A stretch of DNA of 64,000 bases, from NCBI RefSeq assembly GCF_030013595.1, contig NZ_CP122768.1. One strand, given 5' to 3'. The translations under genes and the position numbers were made by a program. The stretch is from Escherichia coli (GTDB taxonomy: Bacteria > Pseudomonadota > Gammaproteobacteria > Enterobacterales > Enterobacteriaceae). Numbering within the stretch: the first letter of the stretch is position 1; each line of letters starts with the position of its first letter. Under the pieces are notes generated by a model that worked only from the letters and a program-made list of their open reading frames with translations, made no database searches and had not been told where the DNA came from. This document shows, in pieces, positions 11,940 to 15,321 of the stretch.

Positions 11940-13523
11940 TCACACCTCGTACTCCATCTCGCCATCCTTACGCAGCGGTATAATCTGCACCTTCTGCACG
12001 CGATGGCTTTCTACCTGCAACGTTTTAAGCAAATAATCCCCCACCTGAACTTCTTCGCCAGGTTTTGGAATACGCTGCAAATACTCCATCAACAGCCCGG
12101 CAATGGTGTGATATTCACGTTTTTCATCCAGCGGCAGCGGCACATATTGCACCAGATCCTCCAGCGGCATATGACCATTCGCCGTCCAGGAACCGTCCGC
12201 ATTCTTCTGAATATCATGGCGGGCGTCGATCTCTTCCACTTCGTTCGGTAAGTTACCGGCAATGGTTTCAGTGACGTCACTTAATGTCACAATCCCTTCC
12301 ACCGAGCCAAACTCATCCACCACAAAAGCAAAGTGCGTGCGGGCATTACGGAACTGCTCCAGGGCAGGTAACAACGGCAAGGTTTCCGGGAACACCAGCG
12401 GCTGGCGAATCAACACCCGCAGGTTGAGCGGTTCGCCGCGCAGAGACTGTTGTAGCAGGTCGATAACGTGAACAACACCGAGCAAATCTTCTGCGTCATC
12501 ACCGTCGGTAACCACCAGCCGCGTATGCTGATTTCGCTCCAGCAACTGGTGGATCTCGTCTTCCGGCGCGTTGAGATCGATATGCTCAATATCGTGGCGC
12601 GACGTCATAATGCTGCTGACGGTACGCTGGTTAAGATTTAGTACCCGCTCAATCATCCGCCGTTCCTGCGGATTAAAGATCTGCTGGTTACCATGATCCA
12701 CCAGCATGGACGCGGTTTCGGCGTCCAGTTCCGCATCTTCTTTTTGCCCGCTAAGCAGGCGCATTACCGCTTCGGTAGTCCGCTGGCGCAGCGTCTGGTT
12801 AGCGGAAAGAAAACGTCGCCGGTTAAAGATAGCCAACTGATTGAGCGCCTCGATCATCACCGAGAAACCAATGGCAGCGTACAGGTAGCCTTTCGGAATG
12901 ACGAAGCCGAAACCTTCTGCCACCAGGCTAAAGCCAATCATCAACAGGAAGCTTAAGCAGAGAATAACGATCGTCGGGTGACTGTTAACAAATTGCGTTA
13001 ACGGCTTGCTGGCCATCAACATCAGGCTGATAGCGATAACCACGGCGGCCATCATGACCAGTAAATGGTCGACCATCCCGACGGCGGTAATCACTGAGTC
13101 GAGTGAGAAAATGGCGTCCAGTACCACAATTTGCGTCACCACGCCCCAGAACTTCGCACCTTTGCGTTGTGTGGGATTATTGCTGTCTTTCCCTTCCAGC
13201 CGTTCGTTCAGCTCCATCGTGGCTTTGAACAACAGGAAGAAACCACCAAACAGCATGATTAAGTCGCGGGCACTAAAGGTAAACGAGCGGAAGCTGAACA
13301 GCGGTTGAGTCAGGGTGACCAGCCAGGAGATTGACGCCAGCAGTAACAGGCGCATTAACATTGCCAGCAGCAGCCCGGTAACCCGTGCGCGGTCACGCTG
13401 CTTCGGCGGTAGTTTTTCGGCGAGGATGGCAATAAAGACCAGGTTATCAATGCCGAGGACCAGTTCGATCACAATCAGCGTGATTAACCCGGCCCAGATA
13501 GACGGATCGGCAATCCATTCCAT
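11940..13523 (-). CDS. yegH: TerC-family membrane protein with CBS and CorC/HlyC transporter-associated domains
   Basis: ORF-track 549 aa trimmed to [34 protein letters not shown] (527 aa); TerC-like N-terminus, CBS-pair region. Confidence 0.85.
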
Positions 13524-13684
13524 AGTAAGTACAAAACCTATTCGTTGTATGACAAATGTCACAATTCGATCATGGATAAATCGGGGCAAAAATGCAATGT
13601 TGCAGCACTATTTATCTCATATTATTTGAGGGTAATAACCTCACATTATCCCTGAATTAAAAGTGGTAATAATAAAACATTATT

Positions 13685-13698
13685 TAAGAAATATCGCA
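13685..13698 (+). promoter_or_regulatory. Candidate RcsAB box upstream of the cps promoter
   Basis: taagaaatatcgca resembles the RcsAB-box consensus (TaAGaatatTCctA) as I recall it; located in the AT-rich region upstream of wza. Match is partial. Confidence 0.3.
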
Positions 13699-13964
13699 TG
13701 TGGAGGCGCAATATTAAATATTGTCAACCTAAAGAAACTCCTAAAAACCATATTGAATGACACTTAATATAATTCTTAAAAATAGCCAATTGCCGAATTG
13801 TTACCTTGCCTGCTATTCCGTTAGCTGTAACACTTCCTCCTGCATTATTGGAGAGCCAATATTCAATTACCATAATGTCACCTTATATTCGGAAGTTAAT
13901 TTCCGCAATAACCCTTTCTCATCAACGATTGTATGCTGAGAGGGTGTGAAAAATTAAGCTAAAT

Positions 13965-14003
13965 CAGTGTATTGGTAGCTAAAAAGCCAGGGGCGGTAGC
14001 GTG
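13965..14003 (+). promoter_or_regulatory. JUMPStart element containing ops (RfaH recruitment site) in the wza leader
   Basis: cagtgtattggtagctaaaaagccaggggcggtagcgtg; contains GGCGGTAGCGTG; near-identical 39-bp element also at 40062. Confidence 0.85.
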
Positions 14004-14181
14004 TCTGGATGCCTGAAAGACCAGTCTGAATTATTCTGTCAATAGCCTGCGGATGAAATCAATTTTTTTAGGACTGATGCCAGTTAAATTTTTATTCAAT
14101 TAACTGCAAGGTAAATGTGCATGGCGACATTGCTATTAATAGTGCACAGGATAATTACTCTGCCAAAGTGATAAATAAACA

Positions 14182-15321
14182 ATGATGAAATCCAAAATGA
14201 AATTGATGCCATTATTGGTGTCAGTAACCTTGATAAGCGGTTGCACAGTACTTCCGGGCAGCAATATGTCGACGATGGGCAAAGACGTCATCAAACAGCA
14301 GGACGCTGATTTCGATCTCGACAAAATGGTGAATGTTTATCCGTTGACCCCGCGCCTGATTGACCAATTACGTCCACGACCCAACGTAGCGCGCCCCAAT
14401 ATGACGCTGGAAAGCGAGATCGCGAATTACCAGTATCGCGTCGGGCCGGGCGACGTTCTGAATGTCACCGTCTGGGATCACCCGGAACTCACCACGCCAG
14501 CCGGTCAGTACCGCAGCTCCAGTGACACCGGCAACTGGGTACAGCCTGACGGCACTATGTTTTACCCGTATATCGGCAAGGTTCACGTAGTCGGGAAAAC
14601 GCTCGCTGAAATCCGCAGTGATATTACCGGGCGCTTAGCGACGTACATCGCTGACCCGCAGGTGGACGTTAATATCGCCGCCTTCCGCTCACAAAAGGCC
14701 TATATCTCCGGACAGGTGAATAAATCCGGTCAACAGGCGATCACCAACGTACCACTGACCATTCTCGACGCCATCAACGCCGCAGGTGGCCTGACCGACA
14801 CCGCTGACTGGCGCAACGTGGTGCTAACACACAATGGTCGTGAAGAACGCATTTCTTTGCAGGCGCTGATGCAAAACGGCGACCTCAATCAGAACCGACT
14901 GCTTTATCCCGGCGATATTCTCTACGTGCCGCGTAATGATGATCTGAAAGTGTTTGTGATGGGTGAAGTGAAGAAACAGAGCACCCTGAAAATGGACTTT
15001 AGCGGCATGACCCTGACTGAAGCCCTGGGCAATGCCGAAGGTATCGACATGACCACCTCCAACGCCAGCGGCATCTTTGTCATTCGTCCGCTGAAAGGCG
15101 AGGGCGGGCGTAATGGCAAGATTGCCAATATCTACCAGCTGGATATGTCCGATGCGACGTCGCTGGTGATGGCGACAGAATTCCGCCTGCAACCTTATGA
15201 CGTGGTGTATGTCACCACCGCCCCGGTTTCCCGCTGGAACCGTCTGATCAATCAGTTGCTGCCAACTATTAGCGGTGTCCGTTACATGACGGATACAGCC
15301 AGCGACATTCATAACTGGTAA
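14182..15321 (+). CDS. wza: Colanic acid outer-membrane polysaccharide export lipoprotein
   Basis: 379 aa; lipoprotein signal [21 protein letters not shown]; first gene of cps cluster. Confidence 0.93.

Follow-up and report, generated by a model that had tools for sequence, protein, structure and literature searches.

The RcsAB box was reportedly described by Wehland & Bernhard in 2000 for wza, rcsA, galF of Klebsiella and amsG of Erwinia. Both the transcription start and the RcsAB site of wza are said to have been mapped, by Stout in 1996 and in the same work of Wehland & Bernhard. At amsG of Erwinia amylovora, the RcsAB site defined by experiment is reportedly 23 bp long and located at -555 to -533 from the ATG. 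The antitermination system formed by JUMPstart/ops and RfaH reportedly goes back to Hobbs & Reeves in 1994 and Bailey et al. in 1997.

The consensus of the RcsAB box is given as TaAGaatatTCctA, in which the most conserved positions are capitalised (PMC4325325), and a structure-derived RcsB box reads TN(G/A)GAN4TC(T/C)NA (PMC7913699, Huesa et al. 2021). The wza gene is dependent on RcsA and RcsB through an RcsAB box (PMC2478693; PMC9976346), and its promoter was described as having a -10 site, a -35 site and this box (PMC2478693). Two wza promoters are listed by RegulonDB (PMC9764084). In CFT073, initiation at wza is bound and silenced by H-NS, and RfaH joins at ops after the silencing has been lifted (PMC9765446). 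The wza promoter, its RcsAB dependence, the silencing by H-NS and the antitermination by JUMPstart and RfaH are already textbook knowledge. The practical yield of the present analysis consists of the exact coordinates of these elements, together with their equivalents in MG1655, and of a predicted wza start.

Results

The Intergenic Region Between yegH and wza

The window, i.e., the whole stretch of 64,000 nucleotides of Escherichia coli DNA that was analysed, contains the following control region:

13524-14181, 658 bp: divergent intergenic region of yegH and wza, based on the RefSeq annotation of identical and near-identical E. coli records

The yegH gene is located on the minus strand with its annotated ATG at 13523, and the ATG of wza, the first gene of the colanic-acid operon, is found at 14182. 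An earlier note, made from the sequence of this DNA, had described a non-coding stretch of about 590 bp starting at 13590. Its actual extent is the 658 bp given above, as the left edge at 13590 came about artificially, through an ORF extended to a TTG start. The description of the DNA in front of wza as AT-rich is borne out by a GC content of 0.35 (0.29-0.41 in single 200-bp segments) against 0.49-0.58 in the flanking genes. Its naming as a cps leader and promoter is likewise correct, since the region matches yegH/wza of E. coli both by its RefSeq neighbours and by its mapping to MG1655. It is the known colanic-acid (cps/wza) control region.

The region is 100% identical to that of E. coli CP53 and, without indels, 98.5% identical to that of K-12. 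Coordinates in MG1655 (NC_000913.3) are obtained by subtracting the window position from 2,151,425. The intergenic region was found in 4,831 of 5,426 complete E. coli genomes, and the remaining 595 are without the promoter region. In E. coli KE51 (NZ_CP141080.1), an IS1 is inserted 65 bp into the intergenic region, and a deletion extends from wza through most of the colanic-acid cluster, of which a glycosyltransferase fragment, wcaM and galF remain.

For the comparison between genera, 80 orthologous wza loci were collected from Escherichia, Salmonella, Citrobacter, Enterobacter, Lelliottia, Kosakonia, Phytobacter, Cedecea, Buttiauxella and others. The positions of boxes were measured from a conserved TGTCAA anchor in block A (described below), and an anchored profile was computed over 71 loci. 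Searches of the 5,426 E. coli genomes with 40-bp tiles were confounded by adjacent polymorphisms, and an alignment of 8 Escherichia sequences was used instead. As for an anchor at amsG of Erwinia, the matches listed by the Wza homologue search comprised only close Enterobacteriaceae.

JUMPstart and ops in the wza Leader

Two nested elements were identified in the leader of wza:

13965-14003, plus strand: JUMPstart element, Rfam family RF01707, matched over its full length with 57.3 bits and E = 4e-12
13992-14003, plus strand: ops element, the 12-mer GGCGGTAGCGTG, 190 bp before the wza ATG, loading site of the antiterminator RfaH

The match lies above the gathering score of RF01707, which is 35, and agrees with the location near the 3′ end of the leader that the earlier note had given for JUMPstart/ops. 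No other RNA family was matched in the region by the Rfam search. JUMPstart/ops is kept in 73 of the 80 orthologous loci, with ops about 190 bp before wza. At the same distance from wza, a ChIP signal of RfaH was observed at ops in CFT073 without hns and stpA (PMC9765446).

A Full-Core Rcs Box at 13685-13698

The 14-mer that the earlier note had flagged as a candidate RcsAB box is found exactly at the position given there, and is referred to as site M:

13685-13698, plus strand (MG1655, NC_000913.3: 2,137,727-2,137,740): site M, TAAGAAATATCGCA, candidate box of the full dimer type for RcsAB/RcsB, same sequence in K-12

It is located 267 bp before JUMPstart, where about 280 bp had been estimated. 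The partial agreement with the RcsAB consensus that had been claimed for it could be reproduced: of the 14 positions of M, 9 agree with TaAGaatatTCctA, among them all the capitalised ones, i.e., T1, A3, G4, T10, C11 and A14. Within 13524-14181 it is the sole match, on either strand, to the full core T.AG.....TC..A. It also fits the structure-derived pattern TN(G/A)GAN4TC(T/C)NA except at position 12, which is G and not T/C. The conserved right half of M is TCGCA and departs from the usual TC(C/T)(T/N)A.

As a single sequence, M is not above chance. In simulated sequences of 658 bp with the composition of the intergenic region, a core match occurred with a frequency of 0.25, which fell to 0.12 when 9 or more of 14 identities were required in addition. 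Nor is the core pattern enriched in the window (19 observed, 23.5 expected).

A Rigid Module of Four Conserved Blocks

By alignment and by the anchored profile of the wza loci, a conserved rigid module of four blocks, A to D, was identified, in which two further Rcs-like boxes, named P and B, are located:

13721-13748, plus strand: block A, composed of TTGTCAACC, site P and AAAA, with the consensus TTGTCAAtaT.AAg.AAaTCCTAAAA; highest conservation of the region
13730-13743, plus strand (MG1655: 2,137,682-2,137,695): site P, TAAAGAAACTCCTA, conserved in its right half, weak in its left half
13763-13783, plus strand: block B, CTTAATATAATTCTTAAAAAT, near-universal, with the consensus CTTAATATTAaTCTTAAAA
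13765-13778, plus strand (MG1655: 2,137,647-2,137,660): site B, the second half-site box with TC(C/T)TAAAA
13805-13813, plus strand: block C, with the consensus CCTTGCCTG
13821-13836, plus strand: block D, with the consensus TTAGCTGCAACAATTC

In 65 of 67 loci, A and D are 100-102 bp apart, whereas the distance to ops varies between 256 and 292 bp. Blocks A and B each finish in TC(C/T)TAAAA, in which an A-tract follows what corresponds to the right half, that of RcsB, of an RcsAB box. At least two copies of the half-site TC[CT][TG]AAA are present upstream of the -10 region in 67 of 69 loci. Of 67 loci, 59 have the half-site of B at 34-35 bp from that of P, and 61 have it at 31-32 bp before the -35 region.

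Site P agrees with the RcsAB consensus at 10 of 14 positions, without the G at position 4. As both G4 and A5 of the left half are missing in E. coli, P is not a full dimer site. The right half with its A-tract (AATCCTA plus AAAA) was found in nearly all of the 71 loci, and P shows no variable position among the 8 Escherichia sequences. In 6 loci, among them Atlantibacter (where it reads TGAGGCTAATCCTA), one Citrobacter freundii, Siccibacter and Kosakonia cowanii, the position of P is occupied by a full-core box.

Promoter and Transcription Start of wza

A promoter of wza was predicted downstream of site B:

13806-13834, plus strand: predicted sigma-70 promoter of wza, with the -35 hexamer TTGCCT at 13806-13811, a 17-bp spacer and an extended -10 element TGtAACACT at 13826-13834 (hexamer at 13829-13834)
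About 2,137,583 in MG1655: predicted wza start; alternative start at about 2,137,647

The combination TTGCCT/TGtAACACT reached the top score on the plus strand of the E. coli region (8.2, simple sigma-70 weight matrix), and the same position is the best conserved promoter position across the 71 loci. TTGCCT is present in 63 of 69 loci and TGnAACAAT in 66 of 69. The spacer is exactly 17 bp long in all 69 of them, while its sequence varies. Furthermore, positions 13815-13852 contain no variable position among the 8 Escherichia sequences. The predicted wza start at about 13841-13842 would give a leader of about 340 nt. Relative to a start at about 13842, B would be centred near -70, P near -105 (-112 to -99) and M near -150. 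A leader of about 340 nt with an RcsAB box about 100 bp upstream presumably applies to wza, and both values fit the TTGCCT/AACACT model.

Start-site data sets were also searched. The wza start is absent from that of Kim 2012 (PMC3415461), which includes yegH and rcsA, and no wza start is contained in the CFT073 data sets, as the operon is silent under standard conditions. A crude scan of the region for sigma-E sites gave nothing convincing. The only promoter-like hit of an automatic prediction, TGGAGA-16-CATAAT at 13849-13876, was discarded since it is confined to E. coli and lacks conservation across the loci. Only Escherichia, with three sequences carrying the promoter, has AACACT as the -10 hexamer; in the other 66 loci it is AACAAT. 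AACACT is the weaker of the two and may render colanic-acid expression more activator-dependent in Escherichia.

Comparison of the Boxes With the rcsA Operator

Upstream of rcsA in E. coli, TAAGGATTATCCGA is followed by AAAA, and the rcsA upstream 'box1' overlaps the YdaT footprint described in PMC11879457. The best match of a 33-bp segment of the rcsA operator within the wza region is block A with site P (22/33 identities, the next best match having 17; P ~0.006 by simulation). For the box1 segment of rcsA the best match is block B (20/31, P ~0.04). In a count by hand, 10 of the 14 positions of site M are identical in the rcsA box TAAGGATTATCCGA, but the extended rcsA operator aligns best elsewhere, namely with P in block A. 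As the best alignments fall on blocks A/P and B, it is P and B, and not M, which appear closest to the validated rcsA operator. A motif match alone cannot decide which of the three Rcs-like boxes is the functional operator.

Conservation of Site M

In the anchored profile, M forms an island of conservation upstream of the module of blocks A to D. A full-core box is located 36-38 bp upstream of the TGTCAA anchor, i.e., at the position of M, in 49 of 71 loci. M is missing in about one in four of the orthologous loci, in contrast to P and B, which occur in nearly all. Among the 8 Escherichia sequences, one of the 14 positions of M is variable and does not belong to the core, with 6 of 8 positions variable in the left flank (13674-13681) and 8 of 12 in the right flank (13699-13710). 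Because the spacing is fixed across genera and a footprint of conservation is visible within Escherichia, M is regarded as functional and not as a chance match. Based on this comparison of sequences, it is considered a dimer-type box for RcsAB/RcsB that is under selective constraint, which upholds the proposal of the earlier note that the 14-mer is an RcsAB-type site.

Two short hypervariable stretches were seen in Escherichia: besides 13699-13710, the stretch 13748-13761 is variable at 12 of 14 positions among the 8 sequences, and the conserved boxes are sharply bounded by them. The allele of the window at 13706-13710, GCGCA, is a minority one, and the 30-mer at 13699-13728 occurs exactly in only 800 of 5,426 genomes.

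The yegH Side and Site U

The opposite end of the region contains the promoter of yegH and a fourth box-like sequence:

13562-13597, minus strand: yegH promoter, with the -35 hexamer TTGCAT at 13597-13592, the -10 hexamer CATGAT at 13574-13569 and the start at 13562
13606-13619: site U, CACTATTTATCTCA, with 3 of 6 core positions in E. coli, 8 bp upstream of the yegH -35 hexamer

The yegH start was taken from the supplement of Kim 2012 (PMC3415461), where it is mapped to 2,137,863 of MG1655 version 3, which equals 13562 in the window. Both hexamers are conserved across genera. An inverted repeat, TGACA-AA-TGTCA, is located at 13551-13562, exactly at the mapped start, and occurs in most of the 71 loci. 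It looks like a candidate operator for a repressor of yegH.

Upstream of the anchor, the broad zone which includes U contains a full-core box in 40 of 71 loci; in 65 of 71, such a box is present in this zone, in the M zone or in both. Full boxes of the U type are often located about 131 bp upstream of the anchor, like TGAGATTTCTCTTA in Enterobacter and TAAGAATAATCGCA on the minus strand in Kosakonia. Across genera, the M-type sequence TAAGAnnnATCGCA and canonical palindromes such as TGAGATTTCTCTTA replace each other at U. The M zone of Atlantibacter contains TGAGGATATTCCTA, a box with the full consensus whose position is shifted upstream by about 10 bp relative to M. U is degenerate in Escherichia, Salmonella and most Citrobacter, with only its right half retained. 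By this alignment of sequences, the E. coli site U is a degenerate remnant of the full RcsAB-type palindrome of other genera. The full U palindrome was found in loci L028, L035, L062, L064, L067, L081 and others, at 8 bp upstream of the yegH -35 hexamer and with its centre at about -50 from the yegH start, which suggests that yegH may be under Rcs control in the genera that carry it.

Small Open Reading Frames

Two small ORFs overlap the conserved blocks:

13757-13939, plus strand: 60-aa ORF, not annotated in RefSeq records
13724-13873, minus strand: 49-aa ORF, 'hypothetical protein' WP_162829205.1 and WP_162863342.1 (RefSeq/PGAP)

The 60-aa ORF is not a gene, in agreement with the earlier note. 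By tblastn, it shows no conservation at the protein level: its similarity is limited to residues 1-30, which are encoded over conserved DNA blocks, and even other Escherichia sequences align only up to residue 46. The 49-aa ORF is annotated in many E. coli genomes, including CP53, but not in K-12, and overlies the blocks of the wza promoter. Its tblastn matches across genera are confined to these blocks, without any conservation at the protein level. For both strands alike, the matches of the small ORFs end at the edges of conserved DNA blocks. This 'hypothetical protein' of many RefSeq E. coli genomes, located over promoter DNA, is probably a spurious call.

Discussion

Proposed Layered Control of wza

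The elements described above can be combined into a model of layered control, with H-NS silencing, a conserved sigma-70 promoter, RcsAB activation from upstream through M together with P and B, and elongation under RfaH, which we consider fairly probable as a whole. According to the literature, the AT-rich DNA bound by H-NS keeps the wza promoter off. Transcription would start near 13842 from the conserved TTGCCT-17 bp-TGnAACA(A/C)T promoter. RcsB, together with RcsA, would switch this promoter on from upstream, and the sites named here for this step are a proposal. M is most likely the high-affinity entry site of RcsA-RcsB, which may cooperate with the half-site boxes P (about -105) and B (about -70) so that RNA polymerase is recruited and H-NS displaced. 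A distal action of RcsAB has a precedent: relative to the rcsA start in the data of Kim 2012, the RcsAB boxes of rcsA are found at about -125 and about -158, comparable to the distance of about 150 bp for M. Finally, following the literature, RfaH loads at JUMPstart/ops in the leader, predicted at about 340 nt, and the 20-kb operon is thereby transcribed to its end. In evolution, M and U seem to have been interchangeable upstream boxes, with other genera using M, U or both.

The wider proposal, a multi-site Rcs architecture with two half-site boxes and a distal full box that was turned over between M and U, is drawn from the comparison of loci and is tentative. As far as the literature was searched, no description of such a layout was found for the colanic-acid control region. 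If it should be true, yegH of Enterobacter, Kosakonia and their relatives would, on account of U, also be expected to be controlled by Rcs. In addition, the multi-box layout could guide the design of reporter constructs for colanic acid and Rcs.

Rival Readings

Which of the boxes is the published RcsAB box of wza bears directly on this model. Full-text searches of the literature with the sequences of M, P, B and the promoter gave no relevant paper that quotes them, and no coordinates of the wza box are given in the reviews and papers citing the RcsAB box. M is the only full dimer site and the sole 14-mer that agrees with every conserved consensus position, which favours it, and its chance of being the published box is put at about even. 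The likeness to the rcsA operator, the universality and the location about 100 bp upstream of the predicted start favour P, which lies 45 bp downstream from M and for which the chance is considerable, though below even. That the published box is neither of the two is improbable. A mapped footprint away from M in the region, which the earlier note had named as a refutation, is a prospect at or somewhat below even, given the rival boxes P and B nearer to the promoter.

An 'RcsA box' common to the rcsA and cps promoters was reportedly described by Ebel & Trempy in 1999, and counts for P. The corresponding reading, in which P, possibly together with B, is the published essential box and M an accessory Rcs site absent from the literature, has a good though less than even chance. 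P with its flanks is the best match of the rcsA operator and B that of box1. The right half of P with its A-tract is near-universal, it is extended to a full core in the 6 loci named above, and at -112 to -99 it fits a wza box about 100 bp upstream and a leader of about 340 nt. Against this, P in E. coli lacks G4 and A5 and so is not a full dimer site, all of the most conserved letters of the consensus (PMC4325325) are present in M but not in P, and binding in vitro would be expected to favour the full site over P. If the published box should nevertheless be P, M would represent an unannotated distal RcsAB operator, and the earlier note would have singled out the wrong 14-mer.

The promoter itself might be a different one. 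An activator-dependent promoter at blocks A and B, with a -10 region TAATAT/TATAAT at 13765-13773, no -35 region and a start at about 13778, would make P a class II RcsB box and place M at about -87, and TTGCCT/AACAAT would in this case represent either an element of the leader or a second promoter. The gap of 21-24 bp between P and this -10 region resembles the geometry of rprA, whose RcsB box TGAGACGAATCTGA, centred at -42.5, has its end 23 bp upstream of the -10 region. An RcsB site is usually found directly next to the -35 region (PMC5651002), and two wza promoters in RegulonDB (PMC9764084) would also suit such an arrangement. Its promoter score is poor, however, and it leaves the rigidly spaced pair of blocks C and D, with every hallmark of a promoter, unexplained. 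Since recognisable -10 and -35 sites were reported for wza (PMC2478693), the TTGCCT/AACACT model is favoured, and the promoter at blocks A and B is regarded as rather unlikely.

Two further readings concern the nature of M. It could be the conserved site of a different regulator, either another partner of RcsB or an unrelated factor, with its RcsAB likeness partly coincidental. The right half TCGCA is strongly conserved and yet atypical for Rcs boxes, and the match of M as a single sequence is not significant. But it is precisely by TA(A/G)GA in the left half and TC at positions 10-11 that Rcs boxes are defined, the M-type TAAGAnnnATCGCA and the palindrome TGAGATTTCTCTTA interchange at U across genera, and the M zone of Atlantibacter holds the full-consensus TGAGGATATTCCTA, so that this reading is improbable. 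That M is a functionless chance match in AT-rich DNA would agree with the 12% of simulated sequences that contain the core with at least 9 of 14 identities and with the core not being enriched in the window. Its conservation at a fixed position in about 50 loci of many genera, and its footprint between hypervariable flanks in Escherichia, speak so strongly against it that it is very improbable. The layered control through M with P and B is retained as the preferred reading.

Comparison With Known Systems

The wza leader is a standard member of the JUMPstart/ops-RfaH antitermination system, with a full-length Rfam match and the 12-nt ops on the non-template strand, and no difference from that system was seen.

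The RcsAB box at promoter P1 of galF in Klebsiella, TAAGATTATTCTCA, occupies the same genomic slot, with galF divergent from yegH. In K. quasipneumoniae, for which the region was fetched through YegH, it is located 186 bp before the galF ATG. The yegH-galF region of Klebsiella differs in that it is without the wza promoter module. Because blocks A to D are absent, the galF promoter is not orthologous to that of wza and does not provide an anchor for the functional wza box. In the K. quasipneumoniae locus, TAAGATTATTCTCA lies inside a longer, near-perfect palindrome, GAGAATAAGATTATTCTC (positions 4408-4428 of L087), which gives two overlapping registers of the box, 7 bp apart.

Compared with the box of the RcsB homodimer, as in rprA (TGAGACGAATCTGA), M deviates at just one of the specified positions, 12, with G for T/C. 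Boxes for RcsB only abut the -35 region, with a centre at about -42 in rprA, whereas M is located further upstream, at 87 bp in the model with a promoter at blocks A and B and at 150 bp in the TTGCCT/AACACT model.

M resembles the RcsAB boxes in being a pseudo-palindrome of 14 bp whose conserved positions are occupied by T, AG, TC and A. It is likewise located in AT-rich, H-NS-bound DNA upstream of a capsule operon dependent on RcsA and RcsB, in a distal position as in rcsA. It differs from them in agreeing with the consensus at 9 of 14 positions and in its right half, which is TCGCA and not TCCTA, and the rcsA operator resembles site P more than M.
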